DNA of 64,000 bases from Candidatus Poribacteria bacterium (GTDB lineage Bacteria > Poribacteria > WGA-4E > WGA-3G). Made by a program: the position numbers and the translations under genes. How positions within the stretch are numbered: position 1 is the stretch's first letter; the number at the start of each line of letters is the position of its first letter. The notes below the pieces were generated by a model, which searched no databases, was not told where the DNA came from, and saw only the letters and a list, made by a program, of their open reading frames with translations. The DNA lies in assembly GCA_963665235.2 (NCBI GenBank), contig CAXXLX010000001.1, positions 2,528,001-2,592,000 on the forward strand, read 5' to 3'. Of this stretch, positions 8,916 to 24,665 are shown in pieces.

Positions 8916-9431
8916 ATGGAAACAGTAACGTTGACCTATAAAAGACTCCCGGACCGGGTTAATTATTTTCAACAGCGACTGCTTTATGAAGACGCTGATG
9001 TCATTGTCACGGCGCAGCGAATAAAACCGTCCTCCCCTATCGTTCTGAACGGCAAAACAGTATTGGCGGATGATTTTACGGCGGTCTGGTTCGTATTTAC
9101 AGGATTGTGGTACGATGTCGGCAAGATTTATAACCTGAAAAACGAGTGGACCGGTTATTACTGTGACATTATGATGCCTGTGAAACGGACCGAGACTCAA
9201 TTTGAAATTACCGACCTGTTTTTGGACCTGTGGATATCGCCTGATGGCAGTTATGAAATCCAAGATGAAGATGAGTTTGAGTCGGCAATTCGGCACGGCG
9301 TAATTGATACCGAATTGGCAAAGAAGGCGCAAAACGCTCTTGATGCCTTAATTGCTGACGTTGAATCGGGAAAATTCCCAAGACAATCTATAATTGTAGA
9401 ATTTGAGCATGCCCCTTCTCAACTTTTTTGA
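8916..9431 (+). CDS. DUF402 family protein
   Basis: GYYCDI...DLFLDLWISPDG...DEDEF motif. Confidence 0.85.
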   Translation: METVTLTYKRLPDRVNYFQQRLLYEDADVIVTAQRIKPSSPIVLNGKTVLADDFTAVWFVFTGLWYDVGKIYNLKNEWTGYYCDIMMPVKRTETQFEITDLFLDLWISPDGSYEIQDEDEFESAIRHGVIDTELAKKAQNALDALIADVESGKFPRQSIIVEFEHAPSQLF

Positions 9432-9606
9432 AAAAATACATGACATGTTTTGAAATTCATGGTATTCTATTAAAAATGGCAGTCAGTTAAAAGATTTTCT
9501 TTTCACAATTCACGCGGTCTATGACAATAGAGGCATAATTGAACGATGGAACAAATTTTCATGGAAAATACGACACAAACCCTTTTGTTCAGGGTTTAGC
9601 AAAAAC

Positions 9607-10944
9607 ATGCGTAATCTTTTTTATCCGATTGGTGGCGGAAATGAAATTGGAGCGAGCTGTTATTTCATTGCATTAAACGGTGACAAGCTGCTCCTGGATT
9701 CCGGCATTCGGTTGCACTCAGATACAAATTATCCGCGTTTCGCTTCGCTTTACGCAGAAAACCTGCTTGATGGTTTATGGGAATTAGACACAATTCTACT
9801 GTCCCATGGGCATCTCGATCATGTGGGGTCGCTCCCTGCTGTCGTTGAGGAAGCATCGGATGTGCCAATTTATGCCACGGTTCCAACGCGGGATATTATG
9901 GAACTACAATTGAACCAACCGCTGCAAACGGATGAGGCGTTCATGGATTTTCATGAAGTGAAACTGTTTAATCAGGAAAGGGTGCAACGTGCTATTGATA
10001 AGGTGCTGCCGAAGGAATGGTATCAACCTATTCCGTTGAACAATTGTCTTGTGTCCTTCTTTCCTGCTGGTCACATTCTCGGAGCATCTATGATTTATAT
10101 TGCCTCCGAGGCGGGGAATGTCCTATTTACAGGCGATTTTACGCACTTCGATCAGAAAACTGTTGCGCGCTATCAACTTCCTGACAACCTGGAAGTTGAC
10201 CTACTGATTACGGAATCTACTTACGGCTATCAGGATGCCGCCTATGCTGAAAATGTGGATACAGAGCGCGAAATATTCGCTGACAAAATTGAGAAATGTT
10301 TAGAGAAAGGCGGAAGCGTGCTGATTCCGGCGTTTGCAATCGGGCGAAGCCAAGAACTTGCCCTCATTTTACAAGAATTAGTACAAGAGGAACGTTTAAA
10401 ACCTTTCCCAATTCGGATTGATGGTCTTGCACAAGTCGCCTGCGAAATCTACGAGGCGAACGGGGTTAAGGTCTTCGGACGTGATGTCGAAAAGGCACCA
10501 GCGGGTTTAGCTGAAACCATGGACGTTTTTAACGGGGTGATTATTGCCAGCTCTGGGATGCTACTAGACAACAGTGCCTCCGCACGTTATGCAGAGAAAT
10601 TGCTGCCGGACCCCCGCAACTCTCTCTTTTTTAGTGGTTACTTGGATGAAGAGAGTCCGGGCAAACGGCTCTCACATCTTTATCAAAATAGGAGCGAACG
10701 GTTTCATCTCAACAAAAAAACGGTCCCTGTTCACGCGGATGTGGATACCTATCGCCTCTCGGCACACACTAACTGCGGCGGTATCCTTGAACTTATTGAA
10801 AAAGTTAATCCCAAAAAGGTGGTGTTCGTCCACGGATATCCACAATATGGGACAGAAATTAACGTATATAGTCAAACGTCCCGGCAATTCCATGGAAAAA
10901 TAGAGGTATATCAAGCAAACAACGGCACCCCTATCTATTTTTGA
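9607..10944 (+). CDS. Beta-CASP metallo-beta-lactamase-fold nuclease
   Basis: GGGNEIGASC, SHGHLDH, AGHILG, TGDF, ESTYG, PAFAIGRSQE, LSAH and FVHG motifs. Confidence 0.9.
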   Translation: MRNLFYPIGGGNEIGASCYFIALNGDKLLLDSGIRLHSDTNYPRFASLYAENLLDGLWELDTILLSHGHLDHVGSLPAVVEEASDVPIYATVPTRDIMELQLNQPLQTDEAFMDFHEVKLFNQERVQRAIDKVLPKEWYQPIPLNNCLVSFFPAGHILGASMIYIASEAGNVLFTGDFTHFDQKTVARYQLPDNLEVDLLITESTYGYQDAAYAENVDTEREIFADKIEKCLEKGGSVLIPAFAIGRSQELALILQELVQEERLKPFPIRIDGLAQVACEIYEANGVKVFGRDVEKAPAGLAETMDVFNGVIIASSGMLLDNSASARYAEKLLPDPRNSLFFSGYLDEESPGKRLSHLYQNRSERFHLNKKTVPVHADVDTYRLSAHTNCGGILELIEKVNPKKVVFVHGYPQYGTEINVYSQTSRQFHGKIEVYQANNGTPIYF

Positions 10945-11066
10945 CGAAAAGCGGGATGGGCGCAAAATTCAATGAGAAACACGATAGGCACAAATCTCTG
11001 GCGTTGGCACGAATAGATAGAAAAACAGATAAATTTGCTTTTCATACACATTTATGTTATACTTTA

Positions 11067-11445
11067 CTAAACTTTGGACAATTTTAGGGTGTGTAAAGTC
11101 AAAGGGATAGATGGAAGGGTGGAAGAGTGGAAGGGTGGATTTCACGTGTGTTGTCTGAATCACGGAAGGCACGGAGAACGCAGAGAACGCGGAATGGAAG
11201 GTGCGGAACAATCAAAGGTTTGTGGTTATAGATTAGGGTGTTGTTCTTTCTATAAACATACCGCCCCGCTGGGGCTATTTTGTGGTGTGGTTGCGTTTTC
11301 TATAAAGATACCGCCCCTACGGGGTTATGCTTTTGCACATTGGAGTCTCTTTTCTACTGTTTGTGTTTGTGTGAGAAACTTAGAGAAAAATCAGAAATGC
11401 TTTGAAAATCGGGCATCAGGCTCACTGATATTGTCCAAACTATAG
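11067..11445. mobile_element. 379-bp non-autonomous element with 9-bp target duplication
   Basis: TIRs CTAAACTTTGGACAAT / ATTGTCCAAACTATAG. Direct repeat TATACTTTA at 11058-11066 and 11446-11454. Contains two REP-like units at about 11245-11330. Confidence 0.8.
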
Positions 11446-11495
11446 TATACTTTAGTAATGGCACTCAACTACCAAACCCTTCTGGGGCAAATTAT

Positions 11496-12008
11496 GTGAT
11501 AAAGGCGGTCGCTTGTAGGATGGACAATAATCCGCTTTCTACAGACACGGATTCTTACAAGCTCGTAGTCTGGAAGCCGGTGATAAGACAGGGTGTAGAT
11601 AGGATCGATGTTTATGGGTACGCAGAGCTCACAAAACAGTACTACGACAACGGCGTGATAACTACATCGCAGTATGTCCACGCTCGTGGCGGTTCCCGGG
11701 GTGGTGATCTTTTCTGGCGGTTCATGCATGAGGTCCGAGGGCCCAACGGCGGTCGAATCGGTTTTGAGCAGGAGGAATTAAAGGACGAGAATGGGGTCGC
11801 TGCACTTTTCAAGTTAGCCCCCGGTGCTTCGTATACTTCACCTACGGTAGACCTCTCCATTTCCCTACCAATGTTAGCAGGAGAATACACCTCAAAGGCG
11901 TATGTGAACCTCGAAGTCGAAGGGACTGAAATCAATGCGGAAGGCAAGAAACTTAAGGTAAAAGACAGCTGGCCCGTTACGAACGAAAAGAAGTTCAAAC
12001 AAGAATAA
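11496..12008 (+). CDS. Hypothetical protein (start uncertain; possible frameshift from ATG 11458)
   Basis: 170-aa ORF of coding-like composition with no RBS at the GTG start. Confidence 0.6.
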   Translation: MIKAVACRMDNNPLSTDTDSYKLVVWKPVIRQGVDRIDVYGYAELTKQYYDNGVITTSQYVHARGGSRGGDLFWRFMHEVRGPNGGRIGFEQEELKDENGVAALFKLAPGASYTSPTVDLSISLPMLAGEYTSKAYVNLEVEGTEINAEGKKLKVKDSWPVTNEKKFKQE

Positions 12009-12012
12009 CCTT

Positions 12013-12040
12013 AGGGGGCGGGTGTCTTCACCCGCCCCCT
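12013..12040. repeat. Perfect GC-rich hairpin AGGGGGCGGGTG-TCTT-CACCCGCCCCCT
   Basis: 12-bp stem in an intergenic gap with no U-tract. Confidence 0.7.
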
Positions 12041-12059
12041 TCCTAAAAGGAGTGGAGCA

Positions 12060-13202
12060 ATGCCTAGATGGACAGCAACCTTAGGGTTTCTCCTCTGTTT
12101 CGTATCTATTGTGAGTGCGAAAATCGTCTTTACGTCAAATCGCAATAGCGATGACAAAGACAATTACGACATCTATTTGATGGACGATGATGGTGGCAAC
12201 CTCCAGCAACTCACGCATACACAACTGAGCGAGCGGCATCCACGATGGTCCCCCGATGGCAGACAGATTGTTTTCAGACGGCAAGTGCATCCATTTGATT
12301 CGCAAAGATGGCACCTGTTCATCATGAATGCGGATGGCACAAATGAACGGCAACTCACGGAACCTCATAAGGATGGCAGAGATAATGTCCCCGTGTTTTT
12401 CCCGGATGGGAAGCGGCTTCTTTTTGTGCGGTATATGTCTCACGATGATGCCCCTGACGCGCACACCATCAATGTGATGAACCTCGCCACAGGAACTATC
12501 AAAAAAATCGCTGACTTTGGCGTAAACTTTCCCGATGTGTCCCCAGATGGTAAGCATATTGTCTACGGTGATATACATGGGGCGGGGGGCAACGGCGGAA
12601 GTAATATCGGATTGATGAACACAGATGGGGACGATGTGTCTGAACTCCTGCCATCCCCTCCAGAAAAACCCACGACACTGAGAGGGATGCCAAGATGGTC
12701 CCCGGATGGCAAGCAAATCCTATATACCGAAAGTCAGTATAACATTGTTCGCTTCAAGAACACGGTTGCCTACGAAGCAATAGGGCATCTATACCGGATA
12801 TGCAATCGGGATGGCACCCCCCATCGCAGATTGAATATCCCGAAGAATAGGACACCCGCCGGCTTAGCTTGGATGGATAACGGAAAGGCGATACTTTATA
12901 GCGTAGGTGAAGTGGAACTGAACAAAGCCCCGGAGAAAGTCGTGGGGAGTTATAATATCTATAAATATGAGATTGCCCCCGGTCAAAACACACCGCTGAC
13001 AACGCATCCCGCAAACGACAAGTATGCGGATTGGATAAGTGATAGGGTGTATTCGGTGTCGCCCGCAGAAAAAAAACTTATGCAATGGGGAGGACTCAAG
13101 TCGCTTTTACTGCCTATGTCCCGTGTGGGATTCGACGTGTTTTTGCGAGACGTGTGCCTTTTCCGCGTGTTCAGAACTTTCACCGGACTGTCCAGAAAAT
13201 AA
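12060..13202 (+). CDS. Secreted PD40/TolB-like beta-propeller protein
   Basis: Signal peptide, KIVFTSNR and repeated PRWSPDG motifs. Confidence 0.88.
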   Translation: MPRWTATLGFLLCFVSIVSAKIVFTSNRNSDDKDNYDIYLMDDDGGNLQQLTHTQLSERHPRWSPDGRQIVFRRQVHPFDSQRWHLFIMNADGTNERQLTEPHKDGRDNVPVFFPDGKRLLFVRYMSHDDAPDAHTINVMNLATGTIKKIADFGVNFPDVSPDGKHIVYGDIHGAGGNGGSNIGLMNTDGDDVSELLPSPPEKPTTLRGMPRWSPDGKQILYTESQYNIVRFKNTVAYEAIGHLYRICNRDGTPHRRLNIPKNRTPAGLAWMDNGKAILYSVGEVELNKAPEKVVGSYNIYKYEIAPGQNTPLTTHPANDKYADWISDRVYSVSPAEKKLMQWGGLKSLLLPMSRVGFDVFLRDVCLFRVFRTFTGLSRK

Positions 13203-13626
13203 ACAGTCGCGTCTCTCTACTTGAACACAGGATTTGCTATGGTTCTACACTGTGAGTGTGTTAAACGTGATAGGGTATTTCTGAAGGTTTGAACGGGCAA
13301 TGAATGGTATCTCTTACTAAACACTGCTCTGTACACAAAAACACAAAAACTACATAGTAAATATTATGCTTCAAGTTGCTACCTAGCTGTCCTTGTCCGT
13401 CCAAATCAACGCTGAATGCGCGTATGGCATTCAGCGGGTTGAAGAAGTCCAATCCGACAATGGCTATTGACTTATGGCCTCGCTGGCTATTGGCTTATGG
13501 CTAATAGCAAGAGGAAGAAACAAAGAGAAAGAGAAATCTAACGCGCGGGATACCGCGTTCTGTAATCACAACATCTTGCCAATTGCTAATTGCTAATTGC
13601 CAATCGCCAATAATAGGAGATATAAT

Positions 13627-14775
13627 GTGGAACTAGAGATTAACGAATTAATAGAGAGATATCGGCACAAATCCAAGAGCCAAACGAAAGACTTAGTCAA
13701 AGCGCAAATTCACAATTATGAATTGGTCCGCGTTGTTCTAGATGCCCCCGGACGGCAGCCTAACGAATTTGTGAAACAACTGGAAAAGGCGATGAACGTT
13801 AGCAGAATCCCTTTTCGCGTTACCCGGCAACTTGATAGGAACCAAATTGACCGACCGCAAAAACGTATCGTGTGGGCCCAGCATGTAGCAGAAGCCGCAC
13901 AGGACCTGTGGGAGTTCTCACTTGAAACGGCAATAAGTGTTGACTATAACGTTCTTTATGAACGTCTCACAGACATTGTGGCGGCCCAAGAAGACACACA
14001 AACCAAAATTGAACCGAAGGCAATCCTTTATCTCTTCAGTCTCGAGCTCGCGGACACGGTCATCTACAAACAGGCTCTAGAGGAAACGGTTCGGCTCGCC
14101 AATTTTGCACAGACAAAGGCCCTCTTGAAGGAACTCGTTGAACTCATTGCAACGGAACGCGGAGTTGTTGAGAGAAAGTCGGCGCATGAACGGGCAATCG
14201 GAGGTATCGCTGGGACTCAAGCACTCATCCAATCCCTAACCCGCGAAAGCGAACCGGTCGTACACGACAGTGAAACGGTAGATTCCGTGTGGCAGGAACG
14301 GCTTGCACATGAAAACGATGACCTTCGCGCCGCGGCAGAAATCGCACAACATCAACTAGAAGCGCTGCAAGAAGAATTGGAGCATATCCGGCATGAAGCG
14401 AAGCAGGAAGCTGTCATTACATTTTTTCAAGAGATGAATTCTGTCAAAAATAGTCATCTCCTTGACCAATTTCAAACCGCCGAGGTGCTCCTTAAAAAGC
14501 TGCGTCAACAAGGAATTGAGATTCCTAAAGAGGCTGAGCTCATTCCTGCGCTTATCGCAATGTTCAGCCGCTTCCTTAAAACGCAGGGAATCCATCCCAA
14601 AGCCTTAATCGGTGAGAAAAAGGAGATAACGCTCCAAGAATCAGACGAATACGAATACATCGGCACCGATTTTGAGAGCGATGTTGACCGGAAAACTGTT
14701 CAAGTCCAAACAGGAGGTTGGATATTTGGGGAAACGCTCATCTCTAAACCGAAGGCGACCGAAATTCAGGAGTAA
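13627..14775 (+). CDS. Coiled-coil protein with GrpE-like C-terminus
   Basis: RBS AGGAG before GTG 13627. Coiled coil followed by VQVQTGGWIFGETLISKPKA, resembling the GrpE beta-domain. Directly upstream of an Hsp70. Confidence 0.65.
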   Translation: MELEINELIERYRHKSKSQTKDLVKAQIHNYELVRVVLDAPGRQPNEFVKQLEKAMNVSRIPFRVTRQLDRNQIDRPQKRIVWAQHVAEAAQDLWEFSLETAISVDYNVLYERLTDIVAAQEDTQTKIEPKAILYLFSLELADTVIYKQALEETVRLANFAQTKALLKELVELIATERGVVERKSAHERAIGGIAGTQALIQSLTRESEPVVHDSETVDSVWQERLAHENDDLRAAAEIAQHQLEALQEELEHIRHEAKQEAVITFFQEMNSVKNSHLLDQFQTAEVLLKKLRQQGIEIPKEAELIPALIAMFSRFLKTQGIHPKALIGEKKEITLQESDEYEYIGTDFESDVDRKTVQVQTGGWIFGETLISKPKATEIQE

Positions 14776-14912
14776 AGCGATAGATTTTTCCATTTGTAGT
14801 TGTTCAACGAAACTACTAGAAAACGCTAGAGGTCAAAACTTTTTTTCAAACTCACGTTAAACAAAACAACTGACAACCTGAAATTTGTCAGCATCAAGAA
14901 AGGGGGCAAACA

Positions 14913-17900
14913 GTGAAATACTGGGTGATTGCACCAATGGAGTCTACGACTCCAGAAGAGCTGTTCACACATGCGTGGAATTACGACATCCAGAACGGCA
15001 CACTCGCTGTAGGGTGGCAGACCACGCAACCGAAATTGCAAGACATTTCTCAAATCGCCAATTTTGAAGACTTTTTAACCGAAATTGCAGCAGCTGACCC
15101 CGGATGGGGGGCCCGCGCGCCGAAAATGATATGGGACTTTCACGACACTATTGAGGAAGGCGATATCATCTTTGCAAGACGCGGTTTAAATCAGATACTC
15201 GGAATCGGGCTCGTGACCCAAAAAGCGTCCTACGATGCAGAAAAAGGCTACGAACGTATTGGCACTTCCGGGCCTCTCTCGGAAAGCCTTCAACAGCACT
15301 TTAGACCCCGGTTTATAGAAATCGCATGGCAGGTTACCGGAAGTTTTCCCGCTAAATTGGCATGGCGACGGACAGTTCAAGAAATTACTGATGTCCAATG
15401 CAGCCAGCTCATCACGGAACTCCAAGCGCATCTCACTGATGCACAATATCAAGAGATACAAGCAGCACTTACTGAGGAAACGACACCTTCACACGTAGAA
15501 GAACCAGCTCCACAGGAGGAGGCTACCCCCGCTACTAGCGAGGAAAGCGTGGCGGAAGACCAAAAGCTGCCTCCACTTGAATCTACAGATGCACCATTCC
15601 GTAGCTGGGAACAGTCCTCGGAAACGGCGGACCAAAAAGAGGTACCCGCTGAACCAACAACGATTCCAGCCGACACACCAAAGACTACGGTCCCAATACG
15701 CGACGTGCCGACACCTAAACCCGATACGTCAGCAGAGCCTAAAAAACCTAATTTTTATATCGGAATTGACCTCGGGACAACTAATTCGGTGATGGGATGG
15801 GGCACTATCAACCCACAGACAAATCAGATTGAACCGAAGATTGTTGAAATCAACATGATGATAGAACGCGGGGGGATAGGCAAACGTGAACTATTGCCCT
15901 CTTGTATCTATTTCAAAGAGGGGAGCCGTCCAATCGTCGGTGAGTATGCAAAAACGATGATCGGCCGGCAGACAGCACGCGTAGTCAAGTCTATCAAAAG
16001 CGAGATAGGCTCTCAAAAATATCACGATTTTGACAATACGCGCTATACCCCAGCAGAGATTTCAGCACAAATTCTCACACACTTAGCAACAAGCGCAAAA
16101 TCACACTTCGGGTTTATTCCTGACGATGTCGTTATCACGGTCCCCGCATCGTTTGATTCCGATATGCGTAACGCAACCATTGAAGCAGCAAAACTCACAG
16201 GTTTCCGAACGACAGAAGATGATGGCAGCCCACGCAACATCTTACTCGATGAACCGCGTGCTGCACTTTACGATTTTATCAACCGACAGAATAAAGGTGA
16301 AATTCCTGAGACGCTTATCAATTTTCACGAACCCAAACTGGTACTCGTTTTCGATCTCGGGGGCGGAACCCTTGACGTATCCCTACATCGGGTTTCGTAT
16401 CAACAGACGGAACACGGGTTGAATATCGAAGATTTAGCTATCTCCCGCTATACGAGAATTGGTGGAGATGATTTTGACCAGAAACTTGCTGACCACTTCC
16501 TCGCAGCTTATGAAAACAAAATTCCTGAAAATCTAGATGACTTCCAGAAAAACCTCCTCAGCAGCACTTTCCGAGAATACGCTGAACAGGCAAAAATCGA
16601 TATCAGCAGTGAAATCGAAAACGGAAAACTTCTGGGATATCTGGAGCTTGATACCGTCGAGACAACGATTATCCAAACGCCTTTCGAAAATCAGGTCTTC
16701 CAATATGACCTCTCCTTAACCGAATACGAGGAAATTGTAGAACCGCTGCTCGGTAATAAGCTCTCTTTGGAAGATGTGGAAAAGGTTGACACCCTGCAAT
16801 TTAACGATGATAACATCATTTATCCGATTCTGGATGTGTTGAAAAAGGCACAACTCAAAATTGGTGAATACCCGAAAGTTGATGCTGTCCTCTTAAACGG
16901 TGGAATGACCAAACTTCATACAATTCAGAATCGGTTGGAAACCTTTTTCGGATTTCCACCTATCGCGGCTGGCGACCCAGATAAAGCTGTTGCGCGCGGT
17001 GCAGTTGTTTATCACTACGACCTGCACCGAGGCATAAAACCCTCCCGGATTTTGAATGACACAATCGGCATCGAAATCACCGGCGGCACGGTCAAACACC
17101 TAGTGGAAGCTGGGACTATCCTCCCGTTATCGCAACCGAAACCTATCGAAGGATTACAGGTAAGCGTCGACGCGCATTACTTAAAACTCCCGTTCTATGT
17201 CGGAAGTCGAACAGACACGAAACCACCTAATCGACGTATCCTTGAGCGAAGAGTGAAATTCGAAAGCCAAAGACCTTTTCTGAAAGATGAACCTATCTTT
17301 ATCCAAGTACAGGTCGATGAAAGAGGTATTTTGAATGTTGAGGGATGGTCCAAAGATAATCCGGCTGACAAATTTACCGTTACCGTAGATGCGGCACAGT
17401 CGCCCGCAGAAACAACGCTCCTGAGACCCGACCAGGCAACCCCTGCGATTGGCACCGTTTCCACGGAATCGACACCTACACGGCAGGTCACCGCCCTCAA
17501 CTTGGACATCAGAGAAGAACTCATCGAAATGCGGAAGCATTATAGCAATTACATGCGAACACACCGCAAGGATGTAATTATGGCGCAGATTAAAAGGCAA
17601 AGCACTAAGGTTGCACGCGCTGAGAATGCCCAAGAGTTCATCAAACCTTTAATCGATACGGTCCAAACTGTCAATAATTTTGGGCGCTCGCGAATCATGA
17701 TTTTGCTCGGGGAACTCGCAGCACGGTGTGCAACGCCTGACCAACTTTATGATATTTGCGACGCTGCGACCTTCCTGAGCAACCCGATAGAGTTGAAATA
17801 TAAGCACCCAAAAGTTATCAACAGTGTTGTCAGATATGCTGTTGAAGCTATTGGAAAAACACAACTCTCGCTTGCTGAATCGCACCTCATTCAACTGCTG

Positions 17901-18425
17901 AATCAGGAGAAGGCGACCTCTATCCAATCAAGCGTTATCTATTCAATGGGGAAATGTTGTCATAGCCTCAACGCTATTGAACACTTAAAACCGCTGATTC
18001 AGGCGGCGAGTGATTCAACGCGTATCGCTGTCAATTGGACCTTCGGAAAAATCGGCAGCCGAGAACGGAAAAATCCCATTCCCATTAACCAGATGGACTC
18101 GGTTATCAGCGCACTTATCAAACAGCTGAAGACTGAACGACATGTCGATGTAAAACGGAACGGTATTTATGCCCTCGGCGAAATTTGTGATCGCCGCGAA
18201 TGCACAACCGATAGTGTAGGGGAAGAAACAGCAGCGTCTGTTATAACCCTCCTTGAAACTTTCACTAAACCTAGCAACTTCGGGACAAGCCTATCCGATT
18301 TAAGCTCCATGCAACAGTCGAAAACACTTCAGCGGTTCGCAGGTGTCTCTACACAGATGATAAAAGGTATCGAACTATCGCACGAACAACAATCCAGCCT
18401 ATTGACAATTCGGGAAGAAAATTAA
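14913..18425 (+). CDS. Atypical Hsp70-family protein with N-terminal EVE/McrB-N-like domain and C-terminal HEAT-like repeats
   Basis: GIDLGTTNS, VITVPASF, DEPRAA, VFDLGGGTLDVS, GGDDFD and PDKAVARGA motifs, starting about 280 aa into the protein. Confidence 0.9.
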   Translation: MKYWVIAPMESTTPEELFTHAWNYDIQNGTLAVGWQTTQPKLQDISQIANFEDFLTEIAAADPGWGARAPKMIWDFHDTIEEGDIIFARRGLNQILGIGLVTQKASYDAEKGYERIGTSGPLSESLQQHFRPRFIEIAWQVTGSFPAKLAWRRTVQEITDVQCSQLITELQAHLTDAQYQEIQAALTEETTPSHVEEPAPQEEATPATSEESVAEDQKLPPLESTDAPFRSWEQSSETADQKEVPAEPTTIPADTPKTTVPIRDVPTPKPDTSAEPKKPNFYIGIDLGTTNSVMGWGTINPQTNQIEPKIVEINMMIERGGIGKRELLPSCIYFKEGSRPIVGEYAKTMIGRQTARVVKSIKSEIGSQKYHDFDNTRYTPAEISAQILTHLATSAKSHFGFIPDDVVITVPASFDSDMRNATIEAAKLTGFRTTEDDGSPRNILLDEPRAALYDFINRQNKGEIPETLINFHEPKLVLVFDLGGGTLDVSLHRVSYQQTEHGLNIEDLAISRYTRIGGDDFDQKLADHFLAAYENKIPENLDDFQKNLLSSTFREYAEQAKIDISSEIENGKLLGYLELDTVETTIIQTPFENQVFQYDLSLTEYEEIVEPLLGNKLSLEDVEKVDTLQFNDDNIIYPILDVLKKAQLKIGEYPKVDAVLLNGGMTKLHTIQNRLETFFGFPPIAAGDPDKAVARGAVVYHYDLHRGIKPSRILNDTIGIEITGGTVKHLVEAGTILPLSQPKPIEGLQVSVDAHYLKLPFYVGSRTDTKPPNRRILERRVKFESQRPFLKDEPIFIQVQVDERGILNVEGWSKDNPADKFTVTVDAAQSPAETTLLRPDQATPAIGTVSTESTPTRQVTALNLDIREELIEMRKHYSNYMRTHRKDVIMAQIKRQSTKVARAENAQEFIKPLIDTVQTVNNFGRSRIMILLGELAARCATPDQLYDICDAATFLSNPIELKYKHPKVINSVVRYAVEAIGKTQLSLAESHLIQLLNQEKATSIQSSVIYSMGKCCHSLNAIEHLKPLIQAASDSTRIAVNWTFGKIGSRERKNPIPINQMDSVISALIKQLKTERHVDVKRNGIYALGEICDRRECTTDSVGEETAASVITLLETFTKPSNFGTSLSDLSSMQQSKTLQRFAGVSTQMIKGIELSHEQQSSLLTIREEN

Positions 18426-18452: not shown

Positions 18453-19661
18453 ATGGCAATTTTAGCAATAAATGGCGGAAAACCGGTACGTACGAGCCCT
18501 TTTCCTACATGGCCAGTGCTTGATCCCACCGACTTAGCAGAATTTGAGCACATATACAACAGTAGAAAGTGGGGGGTTGGCGGTACAAGGGTTCCAGAAT
18601 TTGAGAAACAGTTTGCTGAATTCCACGGGGCAAACTACGGTGTTTGTGTCAATAGTGGCACCTCGGCACTCTATATCGCCCTGAAAGCTGCCGGCATTTG
18701 CCCCGGCGATGAGGTCATTACCACGGCTTATACATTTCAAGCCACAGTCGTCGCTATTCTGATGACCCATGCTGTGCCAATTTTTGTGGACACTGCTCCT
18801 GATAGCTTTCTCTTAGATGTTACCAAAGTTGAAGCTGCGGTAACTGAAAAAACGAAAGCAATTTTGCCGGTTCACATTGCAGGGTATCCAGCTGATTTGG
18901 ATGGTCTCGTTAGTATTGCTACGGAGCATGACCTCAAGATTATTGAAGATTGTGCACAAGCACACGGGGCTGAATGGCGTGGACAAGGCGTGGGTAGCTG
19001 GGGACATTTCGGTTGCTTCAGCTTCCAATCATCCAAAAACCTTTGTGCAGGTGAAGGCGGTATCGTCCTGATGAACGACAGAGCGCTCTATGAACGCGCT
19101 TGGGCATTACACAACTGCGGCCGCACCACGCCTCACGCTGAATTCGGTAACTTGGAGCCGTTCGGCGGAAATTTCAGGATGACAGAGTGGCAGGCGGGTA
19201 TTCTCCTCTCACGTTTAACGCGGCTTGAAGCGGAAACAAATCACCGACACATGAATATGCGGTGGTTGGATGGTTGGTTCGGTGAGATTCCGGGCATTAA
19301 GGTCACCCCGATTGACCCGCGGGCAACACGAGGTGGCTGCCACGGGTATAAGGCTATCTTTGATTCCGAAGAGTTCGAAGGAATTTCACGCGAACAGTTT
19401 ATCAGCGCGATGCGCGCGGAAGGAATACCTATCGGATACTGGTACACTACACCGATGTATCGAGCAGCCTTTCTAAAATCTAACCTCTTTGGAGACACCC
19501 TGGATTATTCTGAAGTTCATTGCCCCGAAACCGAGAAACTGTGCCAAACAGGTATTGCCCTCGGTCAAAACGTGTTAATGGGGACAGAGGAAGATATGGA
19601 GGACATCATTAAAGCATCGATTAAAATCAGACGGAACGTGGCGGAACTAAAAGCGGATTGA
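18453..19661 (+). CDS. DegT/DnrJ/EryC1/StrS aminotransferase
   Basis: NSGTSAL, EDCAQAHG and FSFQSSKNLCAGEGG motifs. Confidence 0.92.
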   Translation: MAILAINGGKPVRTSPFPTWPVLDPTDLAEFEHIYNSRKWGVGGTRVPEFEKQFAEFHGANYGVCVNSGTSALYIALKAAGICPGDEVITTAYTFQATVVAILMTHAVPIFVDTAPDSFLLDVTKVEAAVTEKTKAILPVHIAGYPADLDGLVSIATEHDLKIIEDCAQAHGAEWRGQGVGSWGHFGCFSFQSSKNLCAGEGGIVLMNDRALYERAWALHNCGRTTPHAEFGNLEPFGGNFRMTEWQAGILLSRLTRLEAETNHRHMNMRWLDGWFGEIPGIKVTPIDPRATRGGCHGYKAIFDSEEFEGISREQFISAMRAEGIPIGYWYTTPMYRAAFLKSNLFGDTLDYSEVHCPETEKLCQTGIALGQNVLMGTEEDMEDIIKASIKIRRNVAELKAD

Positions 19662-22664: not shown

Positions 22665-22904
22665 AACGGTGTCGTGTCCTGATAGTGTTAGCGGTTTTGT
22701 TCAAGCTTATAGGTCGGGTTGAACGCAGATGTGGCGTTGATGTGGAAAACGGAATGTCTCTGCCAATTATACGATTTCTCCTTCTCTATAGCAAGTTAAA
22801 AAATCGGATTTCGGGGGTAGGGGATTTTCGGTTGACATCTGGGGGTTGGATGTGGTATTATTTTTACATAAAACCAATTAGCATTCCAAAAGGAAATGTA
22901 ATAA

Positions 22905-24665
22905 ATGCAACACGTTTTTATATCCTATATGCCCGAAAATACGGCTATCATTGATAGGCTTCGCGAAGAACTAACCTCACGCGGCATAGAAGTCTGGATT
23001 GACCGAAATGAGATTAAACCGGAATCTCACTGGAAAGATGCCATTCGGGAAACTATTCGTGAAGGGACTTTTTTTATCGCGTGTTTCTCAAAGGAATATA
23101 GTAAACGCGATAAGACCGACATGAATCAGGAACTGACAATCGCAATTGATGAGCTGCGTCAGCAACCTACTAACAGAGCGTGGTTTATTCCTGTCAAGTT
23201 GAACAGCTGTAAGATACCTAATCGTAACATTGGTAGAGGTGAAACCCTCAACGCTCTTCACGATGTTAAACTCTATAAGGATTGGAATGCTGGTATTCAA
23301 AGCATAATTAAGGTTATTCAATCCGAATCGACGGAACCGACAAGAAATGAGAGCCCCAACTCAAAATCTTCGGAGGACTTTGTAGCTCAAGACAGTGTGG
23401 GCACAAAGAGTTCTGAAGTTAATAGGGACCGAAACAGAAAATTGACTGATTCGCTATTTCAACAAGTTGACGCGATGATGAAGCGCGGCGAAATAGACCC
23501 AGCAGTTACGGATTATGACACAGCGATTGCCTTAGAACCAAAAGATGCTAAAATCTACTATAGTAGCGGTAATGCTTACCGCAATGAAGGCGCGTTTGAA
23601 CTTGCTCCTGCGGATTATAATGAGGTAATAGAGTCGGATATAGAAAACGCCGGTTTCTACAACAGTCGCGGTGTTATCTACAGCAACGAAGGCGAAACAG
23701 ATAAGGCCATCAGAGATTTCAACAAGGCAATAGAACTGAATCCAAAATTTACCGAGGCTTATTACAATCGTGGCAATGTTTACGCAAACACAAGCGATTT
23801 TGATAACGCCATCAGCGACTATACCGAAGTAATAAAACGCAACCCAAATGATGCCCAGGCATATAACAATCGTGGCAATGTTTACGCAAACACAAGCGAT
23901 TTTGATAACGCCATCAGCGACTATACCGAAGCAATAAAACGCAACCCAAATGATGCCTAGGCATATTCCGGCCGGGGTTTTACTTACTACGATATAAATG
24001 AGTTTGATAACGCCATAGATGACTATACGGAAGCAATAAAACGCAACCCAAATGATGCCGAGATTTATTACAATCGGGGTCTTGCTTACGCCGAAACAGG
24101 TAATTTTGACAACGCCATCAACGACTATACGCAAGTAATAAAACGCAACCCAAATGATGCCGGTGCCTATTACGTCCGGGGCAATGCTTACTTGCACAAA
24201 GGTGAGTTTGATAACGCCATAGATGACTATACCGAAGCAATAAAACGCAACCCAAATGATGCCGATGCCTATTACGTCCGGGGCACTGCTTACCTCGCAA
24301 AAGGTGAGTTTGATAACGCCATAGATGACTATACCGAAGCAATAAAACGTAAAAAAGATTATGCCGGTGCCTATTACGTCCGGGGCACTGCTTACGTTGC
24401 CAAAGGTGATGTGTATAATGCCATCAGCGACTATAATACAACTATAAAATACAAACCCGATTTTGCCGGAGTGTATGTTGTCCGTGGGTTAGTCTGCTTA
24501 CATTTAAGGAAATGGAAAAGAGCAAAATCAGATCTGATGAAAGCCAGAAACCTGGGCGTGGATATCGGTGCTGCATTCCATGAGGACTACGCGAGCGTTG
24601 AAGATTTTGAGCAGGAAATGGGTATCCAGTTGCCAGAAGGCATCGCTGCACTATTGACTTCGTAG
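22905..24665 (+). pseudogene. TIR-TPR protein interrupted by an in-frame TAG at 23958-23960
   Basis: TIR domain (HVFISY...EVWID...FIACFS...EL) plus TPRs. The frame stays open after the TAG to 24665; the previous repeat has CAG at the same position. Confidence 0.85.

Follow-up and report, generated by a model that had tools for sequence, protein, structure and literature searches.

A beta-CASP RNase, a GrpE-fold protein and an Hsp70-HEAT fusion form a three-gene unit in Candidatus Poribacteria: a candidate nucleic-acid-directed conflict module

Introduction

Three genes in a 64,000-nt stretch of DNA from Candidatus Poribacteria bacterium (assembly GCA_963665235.2, contig CAXXLX010000001.1, positions 2,528,001-2,592,000 of the forward strand; the entire stretch is referred to as the window) form one unit: they encode a beta-CASP ribonuclease (RNase), a GrpE-like protein and an Hsp70 fused to HEAT-like repeats, and are here called the triad. 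On balance we consider it probable that the triad is an accessory module of nucleic-acid-directed conflict (anti-phage or anti-mobile-element), in which Hsp70 would serve as the switch, the GrpE-like protein as its own exchange factor, and the RNase as the effector. An initial annotation, made from the sequence alone, had proposed a dedicated, non-housekeeping Hsp70/GrpE pair acting in anti-phage defence. The linkage of the two genes and the non-housekeeping character of the pair were borne out: canonical DnaK and GrpE are encoded elsewhere in the same genome (G000), and the pair occurs in just 15 of 176 genomes of the phylum. The unit, however, has three members rather than two, the beta-CASP gene – which lay outside the annotated interval – being strictly linked to the pair.

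Hsp70 is usually regarded as a protein chaperone, and the proposal from comparative genomics that it acts as a switch in conflict systems of prokaryotes is reportedly a recent one; we know of no such Hsp70-switch system with a worked-out mechanism. The idea put forward here is directly testable, because the module is small (three genes), is conserved across phyla, has ATPase and nuclease sites that appear intact, includes a predicted exchange factor of its own, and in one lineage is linked to a type III CRISPR-Cas system.

Results

The three genes form one unit

The window contains two open reading frames (ORFs) on the same strand, 13627-14775 and 14913-18425, at the positions first annotated; both frames, the N-terminal motifs and the Pro/Glu/Thr linker that had been described were all found in the translation. 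The GrpE-like gene runs from GTG 13627 to 14775 (382 aa), and this GTG is the most likely start because an AGGAG ribosome-binding site lies 7 nt before it and homologues open with the same MEL(Q/E)IN. The Hsp70 fusion gene runs from GTG 14913 to 18425 (1170 aa). The features of the locus, with the evidence for each, are:

9607..10944, plus strand: beta-CASP metallo-beta-lactamase RNase, 445 aa (Pfam, PDB sequence matches, motifs)
10945..13626, no strand: 2.7-kb insert dividing the module (related loci, Pfam, repeats, contig depth)
13627..14166, plus strand: all-helical N-terminal domain of the GrpE-like protein, residues 1-180 (predicted model; no known family)
14266..14772, plus strand: predicted GrpE-fold region, residues 214-382 (VIA-align and Foldseek on the model)
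14913..15482, plus strand: predicted EVE/YTH-like (PUA-superfamily) domain, residues 1-190 of the Hsp70 fusion (model and fold matches)
15483..15743, plus strand: Pro/Glu/Thr-rich linker, residues about 190-277 (translation)
15744..17471, plus strand: Hsp70 nucleotide-binding domain, residues about 278-715, and beta substrate-binding domain to about 853 (Pfam, DnaK alignment)
17493..18422, plus strand: HEAT-like alpha-solenoid, residues 861-1170 (profile against PDB)
8916..9431, plus strand: DUF402 gene, left flank, outside the module (present in 111 of 112 family genomes)
18453..19661, plus strand: DegT/DnrJ aminotransferase gene, right flank, outside the module (Pfam 3.7e-97)

In all eight related genomes (8/8) the three genes lie on one strand in the order beta-CASP, GrpE-like, Hsp70-HEAT, with the beta-CASP gene directly before the GrpE-like gene; the GrpE-like and Hsp70 genes overlap by 4 bp in the seven related loci in which both were called. 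A further 26 loci were obtained from genome and metagenome collections, many of them close kin and some perhaps identical to the first eight genomes. Among these, the GrpE-like gene stands directly upstream of the Hsp70 gene in 21 of the 22 with upstream DNA – in the remaining one, L076, no more than 401 bp precede the gene – and the beta-CASP gene is upstream in 15 of the 15 that reach far enough. About four independent lineages are represented: the window's clade, L068, a Melioribacteraceae contig (L071) and a metagenomic group (L074-L080). Identity to the window's Hsp70 is 33-49% in the triads of L071 and of metagenome contigs L068, L075, L079 and L080.

The survey of the phylum (n=176 genomes, with a family subset of n=112) recovered the GrpE-like gene from 15 genomes and the HEAT part from 16. 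Orthologues of the beta-CASP gene (63-74% identity) were found in 13 of the 112 family genomes, all of which belong to the 15 with the GrpE-like gene; in the other two the pair is truncated by contig ends, and all remaining family genomes hold only beta-CASP paralogues of at most 38% identity. The site without the module, DUF402-DegT, was seen in five of five module-less genomes (spacing 41-42 bp in three of them, G077, G090 and G093), and in all five DegT is 80-85% identical. Because DUF402 adjoins DegT in each of these, the triad is a clean presence/absence block. DUF402 itself was considered as a fourth module gene and rejected: it is a core gene.

A second operon type is found in genome G100. 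There (L090, G100:C1, 9085-16466, minus strand) a reader-Hsp70-HEAT gene encoding 1110 aa (39% identity) is preceded by three ATPase-only Hsp70 paralogues (413-439 aa), with two DDE transposase genes and a DUF4143 fragment in the surroundings. A separate irregularity concerns L030 (G155:C1, 6397-9104), where the Hsp70-HEAT gene appears as two overlapping ORFs (513 and 390 aa) beside apparently whole GrpE-like and beta-CASP genes; the split reflects a frameshift or an assembly error.

An Hsp70 ATPase with HEAT-like repeats in place of the lid

The Pfam HSP70 model (PF00012) matches the fusion protein with 160.9 bits against a cut-off of 20.6 (E=4.9e-47) and covers profile positions 105-510 of 599. 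Since the match ends at 510, the ATPase and the beta substrate-binding parts are present and the helical lid is absent. The motifs IDLGTTNS and DLGGGTLDVS occur in the translation, and a MAFFT alignment with the canonical DnaK of the same genome (32% identity) places D286, E447, D481, T486 and D488 opposite DnaK D8, E171, D194, T199 and D201. Among 39 homologues D286, K362, D481 and P448 are invariant and E447 is kept in at least 90%; K362 would correspond to DnaK K70 on a reading of the SIK motif, MAFFT placing it otherwise. Judged by this alignment and by the invariant columns, the phosphate-binding and catalytic residues are intact, as had been annotated. The NCBIfam equivalog models for DnaK and HscA give 153 bits against a cut-off of 648, and with scores so far below the cut-offs the protein is an orthologue of neither.

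The initial annotation also held that helical repeats follow where DnaK has its lid, and two results agree: the Pfam match stops short, and a profile of 11 sequences of the C-terminal 310 residues matches the alphaRep protein 4zv6_A (E=3.3e-16), the HEAT-repeat protein 6veh and armadillo (ARM) designs in PDB. On the window's single sequence Pfam HEAT_2 reaches 21.6 bits, under its cut-off of 27.7; in homologue P0212 it is above it (35.5 bits). At the level of sequence profiles, then, the lid (the alpha part of the substrate-binding domain) is replaced by HEAT-like repeats. The length of the Pro/Glu/Thr linker differs from homologue to homologue. At least 318 Hsp70-HEAT homologues were recorded.

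PADLOC gives a weak partial match of PDC-M61B to part of the ATPase, and PHROGs holds no family for the HEAT part, the N-terminal domain or the GrpE-like protein. A separate N-terminal domain was entertained for a 1270-aa protein of the G068 type and dropped, the blastx alignment beginning at residue 1 (L056); a look-up of P0102 residues 1-330 in the ESM Atlas returned no usable match.

The N-terminal domain belongs to a modified-base reader fold

Residues 1-190 of the fusion are conserved in 28 homologues (38-83% identity), and a model predicted from the 29-sequence alignment has a predicted local distance difference test score (pLDDT) of 90.5. The best PDB matches in Foldseek are YTH domains and the EVE protein PH1033 (E from 2.6e-4 to 9e-4, the leading matches at 2.6e-4 to 3.3e-4), the first of them being the YTH domain of CPSF30. 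VIA-align ranks highest the EVE-HNH restriction enzyme VcaM4I (6yex_A; Z 11.5, root-mean-square deviation (rmsd) 3.9, 139 residues aligned) and PH1033 (1wmm_A; Z 11.5, rmsd 2.4, 116 aligned), followed by YTH domains (Z 8.2-10.4), THYN1 (8.1), N-domains of archaeal McrB (6.7-6.8) and DrmAB (6.3). The PUA/EVE-like character suggested by the initial annotation is thus recovered from the predicted structure. The Pfam EVE and YTH models do not match the domain at E<=0.01, which makes it a separate sequence family of the PUA-like fold, and a sequence search of PDB with the domain found nothing significant. Homologues bear the precomputed accession PF28530, whose extension over the reader domain is deduced from the proteins that carry it. 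Aromatic residues are conserved at W4, F18, W65, W74, F76, Y106, Y107, F134, W139 and F145.

A HMMER scan of 1.84 billion representatives yielded 304 relatives of the domain. Fusion partners were examined in 43 of the 150 listed relatives, and because these were picked mainly by length (>200 aa) the sample is biased toward fusions. Of the 43, 10 carry a McrB-type AAA_5 domain, 6 an HNH domain (one with GmrSD_N) and 9 a PD-(D/E)xK domain – 25/43 in all, in keeping with the resemblance to restriction proteins first noticed – while 3 carry Hsp70, 2 a kinase, and the remainder other domains or none. PADLOC adds a weak match to PDC-S02 (1.3e-6). From the predicted model we conclude that the domain has a PUA-like EVE/YTH fold, in a family heavily used by modification-dependent restriction enzymes. 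It is an optional part of the protein: most triad Hsp70s are without it, and in one distant homologue a RAMP domain is added ahead of it. As a separate observation, the reader family is also fused to serine/threonine kinases, TPR, Sel1, CBS and a beta-helix protein (for example P0262 and P0353) and so is not confined to nucleases.

The upstream protein has a predicted GrpE fold

The GrpE-like protein has 96 relatives, among which its C-terminal half is best conserved. Distant homologues in L071, L075 and L079 align by BLASTP over no more than 152-189 residues, a stretch that we read as this C-terminal part. The predicted model (overall pLDDT 80.3) consists of a helical N-domain (residues 1-180, mostly pLDDT 84-95), a disordered segment (187-218), a 50-residue helix, two shorter helices and a small C-terminal beta domain. 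When the model was compared by VIA-align with 48,161 chains, the top three were all GrpE – human GrpEL1 (9bls_B; Z 9.0, rmsd 7.4, 149 aligned), Geobacillus GrpE (4ani_A; Z 8.8, rmsd 9.5, 151 aligned) and E. coli GrpE (1dkg_B; Z 8.0, rmsd 5.4, 145 aligned) – and the fourth had Z 6.0. Each of the three matches spans nearly the entire GrpE chain and model residues 214-382; in our reading a long helix set at a different angle would account for the high rmsd values. Foldseek gives GrpE chains a probability of 0.96 (E=0.16-0.35).

Sequence methods do not see this relationship. The protein has no Pfam, NCBIfam, PADLOC or PHROG family; a search of the genome with PF01025 found two other genes and not this one; neither the protein nor its family profile has a sequence or profile match in PDB. 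Aligned by hhalign with 25 GrpEs of the phylum, the family gives E=0.35 and a probability of 0.17, which is not significant, the sole match being the collinear beta domain. The GrpE-like segment that had been annotated therefore stands as a fold (by the three VIA-align matches) and fails as a sequence assignment (Pfam, hhalign). The large novel N-terminal region was correctly noted: residues 1-180 have no known family, and the ESM Atlas returned nothing usable for them.

Co-folding of the pair, which the initial annotation had suggested, was carried out with Hsp70 residues 278-715 and GrpE-like residues 214-382. The score was 0.58 (runs 0.59, 0.57 and 0.58) against 0.00 for the best of three controls; the runs share at least 94% of contacts, and the partner has pLDDT of at least 85. 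Of 80 solved complexes 58 attain the mark applied, as do 2 of 110 mismatched pairs, and scores of 0.60 or below come from just 7 of those 80 complexes plus both mismatches; the verdict is weak support. Since solved DnaK-GrpE complexes exist, the pass may mirror known complexes. From the fold matches we conclude that residues 214-382 have a GrpE fold; an exchange-factor function is likely.

A second non-canonical pair was observed on contig C2 of G000 (821753-823303 and 823371-823874; L002, L006), about 13 kb from the canonical dnaK: a 538-aa Hsp70 (389 bits) beside a divergent GrpE (47 bits to PF01025) that is 17% identical to the canonical GrpE.

The third gene encodes a CPSF73-type nuclease

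Pfam matches the product of 9607-10944 to Lactamase_B (1.9e-16), Beta-Casp (4e-12) and RMMBL (3.9e-7), and sequence matches in PDB include Integrator-11 (3.4e-44), an archaeal CPSF (5.2e-44), CPSF73 (9.6e-40), TTHA0252 (1e-32) and Cas14 (2.5e-26). The translation contains D31, HGHLDH at 67-72, H156, D177, E203, H386 and H409, so that by motif all metal-binding and beta-CASP elements (1-4, A-C) are present. This third member of the module is its likely effector. The RMMBL motif and the kinship with CPSF73-type enzymes make RNA the more probable target, though DNA is also a candidate, as relatives with the reader fold include binders of modified DNA as well as binders of modified RNA. PADLOC returns nothing for the window's protein and weak partial matches for its counterparts in L071 and L075 (LmuA, 1.3e-4; PDC-M48B, 2.6e-5 and 3.9e-4).

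Defence genes accompany the triad in other lineages

In L071 the triad lies within a type III CRISPR-Cas locus. It is preceded by Cas10, Csm2, two RAMP genes, an unassigned gene and a CARF-PD-(D/E)xK gene (1e-75), and is followed by a CARF5 gene (1e-66), an ARPP-1 gene, two genes without family, Cas1 and a five-repeat CRISPR array. Elsewhere the neighbours differ. In L075 and L079 a gene for a Cas4-like nuclease fused to a HerA ATPase is found 13-15 bp upstream of the triad, and this gene fits a HerA model with the label 'Type III coevolved'; in L079 a CARF gene lies nearby as well. An Mrr endonuclease follows the triad in L077, and a Macro protein and a TmtA-DarT protein follow it in L073. 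In the window and its eight relatives neither cas10 nor csm genes are adjacent to the triad. Among the neighbours scanned (window 8-27 kb, L068, L071-L073, L075, L077, L079 and L090) there is no AAA_5 or DUF2357 gene, and no J-domain protein occurs in or beside the module in the window and the scanned loci. The ARPP-1 family gene of L071 (3.1e-68) and the two genes without family occupy 12397-15547 of that locus.

Discussion

A switch-and-effector reading of the triad

If the triad is a conflict module, the Hsp70 would be an ATP-driven sensor and switch, its HEAT solenoid probably serving as a docking surface. In the window's genome the EVE/YTH-like domain may recognise a modified base in invader or aberrant RNA or DNA; in relatives without the reader domain the signal would arrive by the substrate-binding domain or the HEAT repeats. 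The GrpE-fold partner would release ADP and so reset or time the switch, and its new N-domain may tether a third component. The beta-CASP protein, of the RNA-specific CPSF73/TTHA0252 type, is the putative executing nuclease, recruited or unleashed by the Hsp70 cycle.

A bolder version is that the triad represents an undescribed immune class in which a full Hsp70 ATPase cycle gates a CPSF73-type RNase, with a dedicated, extremely diverged GrpE-fold exchange factor, a HEAT solenoid and interchangeable inputs (EVE/YTH, RAMP or none), working alone or as an add-on to type III systems. This we offer tentatively, judging it possible and rather less probable than the general reading. Were it true, the triad would parallel, in prokaryotes, the combination of YTH reader, HEAT scaffold and beta-CASP endonuclease known from eukaryotes.

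Several observations weigh against a conflict role or against parts of the scheme. The link to anti-phage defence that had been annotated comes from the relatives' loci (the neighbourhood survey): there is no defence island around the unit in the window's genome, and no recognisable defence gene among the scanned neighbours of L068. The survey covers few loci, many of them closely related, leaving only the four or so independent lineages. PADLOC, which the initial annotation had looked to for confirmation, has no system model for the GrpE-like protein (three loci scanned), nor one for the beta-CASP beyond the weak partial matches. The homology to GrpE fails every sequence test (Pfam, the PF01025 search, the PDB profile and hhalign), and the FDP..H segment of GrpE is not kept: D177 and H181, invariant in the 25 GrpEs, face ITLQESDEYEY in the hhalign pairing. 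No GrpE-like or beta-CASP gene was found in G100, a variant from which it follows that the reader-Hsp70 fusion does not always depend on these partners. The window's genome and its relatives keep the module at a single chromosomal site between ordinary-looking genes, and a fixed site is as compatible with old vertical inheritance followed by losses as with mobility. Finally, a scan of viral contigs found no relative of the module, and plasmids in PLSDB gave only DnaK-level partial matches, with none of 186 records covering 80% of the query.

Alternative explanations

The most serious competitor, though we regard it as unlikely, is an accessory machine for RNA processing or quality control, in which the YTH/EVE-like domain would steer the RNase to the cell's own modified RNAs (tRNA, rRNA or transcripts marked by N6-methyladenosine, m6A), and the beta-CASP protein would be scaffolded by the HEAT repeats and loaded by the Hsp70 cycle. 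In plants CPSF30-YTH and CPSF73 act together, which provides a loose model. The nuclease indeed has its nearest matches in CPSF73, Integrator-11 and TTHA0252 and contains RMMBL, a motif of RNA specificity; the CPSF30 YTH domain heads the Foldseek matches of the reader; the module holds a fixed chromosomal site among ordinary genes in the window's relatives; and the RNase is the only toxin-like effector present. Such a machine does not, however, account easily for a patchy distribution (about 15 of 176 genomes, with clean empty sites), for defence neighbours that recur in unrelated lineages, or for the dominance of restriction-type fusions in the reader-domain family. More improbable still is an ancillary type III CRISPR-Cas module whose RNase, aided by the chaperone pair, would mature CRISPR RNA (crRNA) or clear target RNA, and which in this genome would act in trans with type III loci encoded elsewhere. 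The position of the triad in L071, between two CARF genes and ahead of Cas1 and the array, speaks for it, as do the CARF neighbour in L079, the fit of the gene upstream in L075 and L079 to the 'Type III coevolved' HerA model, the RAMP domain fused to one homologue, and the Cas10 and RAMP genes on two contigs of the window's genome; host RNase J is reported to participate in crRNA maturation in some bacteria (PMC12464536). Yet cas genes stand beside the triad in just one examined locus, the nearer Cas10 gene here (C1:1749945) is about 790 kb from the module, no module protein contains a CARF or SAVED sensor, and the main text of the 2025 CRISPR classification (PMC12669027) makes no mention of Hsp70, DnaK, GrpE or chaperones.

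Two alternatives remain. One makes of the Hsp70 and GrpE-like proteins a self-contained two-gene sensor pair, with the beta-CASP gene as a syntenic passenger. The distance of 2.7 kb in the window, with two unrelated genes between, and the reader-Hsp70-HEAT gene of G100, which has no beta-CASP gene, could be taken to favour it, although G100 also lacks a GrpE-like gene and is for that reason a different operon type and not a two-gene version. Given a beta-CASP gene in 15 of 15 evaluable loci, from lineages with differing flanks, and orthologues confined to genomes with the pair, we think this very improbable. The other, which we rate lowest of all, is a specialised folding chaperone for a particular client with no nucleic-acid role: the apparently intact ATPase residues, the retained beta substrate-binding domain and the dedicated partner resembling an exchange factor are what such a chaperone would have, but there is no J-domain protein in or beside the module, the lid is replaced, and the fused EVE/YTH or RAMP domains and the obligate RNase are left unexplained.

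Relation to known systems

The conflict reading places the triad with the predicted Hsp70-based conflict systems, where we consider that it belongs, with a fair chance of being more. Among these, the CnuD/CnuCD proteins of Type III CoCoNuT systems combine an Hsp70-like ATPase/substrate-binding unit with HEAT-like repeats (Bell et al. 2024, PMC11090510, in the sections available to us). The triad shares with them, on that partial text, the layout of Hsp70 nucleotide- and substrate-binding domains plus HEAT, a predicted RNA-targeting defence role, links to CARF, and the presence of EVE/YTH-like domains in the same systems. The partners differ: those of CoCoNuT, as given there, are a McrB-like NxD GTPase (CnuB), DUF2357/McrC (CnuC) and HEPN, none of which was found beside the triad, whereas those of the triad are a GrpE-fold protein and a beta-CASP RNase. 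The Walker A-like motifs of CnuD are described as degenerate in the same sections of PMC11090510, while the phosphate-binding and catalytic residues of the triad Hsp70 appear intact, CnuD being compared by description only.

The conflict systems centred on the GAP1-N2 GTPase include HSP70 and GrpE (Kaur et al. 2020, PMC7159879, from the part of the article available). They resemble the triad, to that extent, as predicted conflict systems that recruit Hsp70 with a nucleotide-exchange factor, and some contain an extra Hsp70 without the peptide-binding domain, like the G100 variant. As portrayed in that part of the article they comprise GTPases and FNIII/DnaJ or TPR proteins, mostly in actinobacteria and firmicutes; the triad, by contrast, has no GTPase and no J-domain, a GrpE recognisable by fold only, a HEAT solenoid for a lid and an obligate beta-CASP RNase. 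With DnaK-GrpE itself (for example PDB 1dkg) the triad has in common the ATPase fold and catalytic residues, the exchange-factor fold, and adjacent genes that in relatives are translationally coupled; it differs in that a separate canonical pair exists, the lid is missing, a reader and HEAT repeats are added, and there is neither a J-protein nor a GrpE sequence signal.

EVE/YTH-fused Type IV restriction enzymes (EVE-HNH of the VcaM4I type and EVE/YTH-McrB) have the reader fold and sequence family in common with the triad, to which the weak PDC-S02 match may be added. In those enzymes the reader is fused to a nuclease or GTPase; in the triad its fusion partner is Hsp70, and a beta-CASP RNase encoded by another gene is the nuclease. 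Hsp70, DnaK, GrpE, chaperone, beta-CASP and HEAT all go unmentioned in the main text of the EVE census (PMC7641849).

A beta-CASP RNase as immune effector has a precedent in Cas14 of type VII CRISPR-Cas, which works with Cas7 and Cas5 and has a Cas10-like C-terminal domain (PMC12669027, same partial text). The triad nuclease matches Cas14 chains (E=2.5e-26) and is nearer to CPSF73/Integrator-11 (E=1e-40 to 1e-44), and its partners are of chaperone type; because the beta-CASP, Lactamase_B and RMMBL matches reach residue 412 of 445, there is no space for a large extra domain like that of Cas14. We found no published description of a unit of beta-CASP, GrpE-like and Hsp70-HEAT genes, although the supplements of the CoCoNuT, EVE and CRISPR-accessory papers may list such genes. 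On the conflict reading, the immune use of beta-CASP RNases would extend beyond type VII CRISPR, and Hsp70 would join the engines to which EVE/YTH modified-base readers are coupled. The triad also reveals a GrpE fold invisible to sequence methods. Should base modification guide the RNase, the system is a potential tool for modification-dependent RNA cleavage.

The insert and the neighbourhood in the window's genome

The 2.7-kb insert between the beta-CASP and GrpE-like genes is found in this genome only, by comparison with eight related loci. It contains an ORF of 170 aa without family (11496-12008) and a gene for a PD40 propeller with a hydrophobic N-terminus (12060-13202; Pfam PD40, 1.4e-23), and has multi-copy repeat elements as its borders, at about 11054-11460 and about 13232-13592. 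The depth of contigs from the DNA run is 939 and 238 over the repeat bins, compared with about 20-40 around them, with many alternative joints. An imperfect 30-nt inverted repeat (11058-11087 / 11425-11454) and a common 19-nt motif (at 11054, 11442 and 13304) were identified, and the elements look like miniature inverted-repeat transposable elements (MITE-type).

A scan for promoters and terminators did no better than shuffled sequence (15 sites, 12.9 expected). Metatranscriptome contigs from three runs of one study match parts of the beta-CASP gene (about 9477-10760) and of the GrpE-like gene (about 13728-14858) as well as 18083-18259, with 90-99% likeness; such matches do not show transcription, because DNA may be present in these libraries and the strains behind the contigs are related ones, and no meaning attaches to the stretches left uncovered.

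Far from the module, G000 has two apparent type III CRISPR-Cas loci (C1:1746355-1750409 and C2:265545-274055), with a Cas10 palm domain and several RAMPs. Closer by, at 22905-23960 on the plus strand of the window, lies a gene for a TIR-TPR protein (TIR_2, 7.3e-22; PADLOC Aga_TIR, 1.3e-13). It sits between DUF6785 and POTRA genes, accompanied by small ORFs (22685-22954 and 24192-24665); L027, L030 and L031, the three related loci in which both flanking genes are visible, have DUF6785 and POTRA directly side by side. Lying 4.5 kb from the module, the TIR-TPR gene has the look of an insertion of defence type that only this genome carries.

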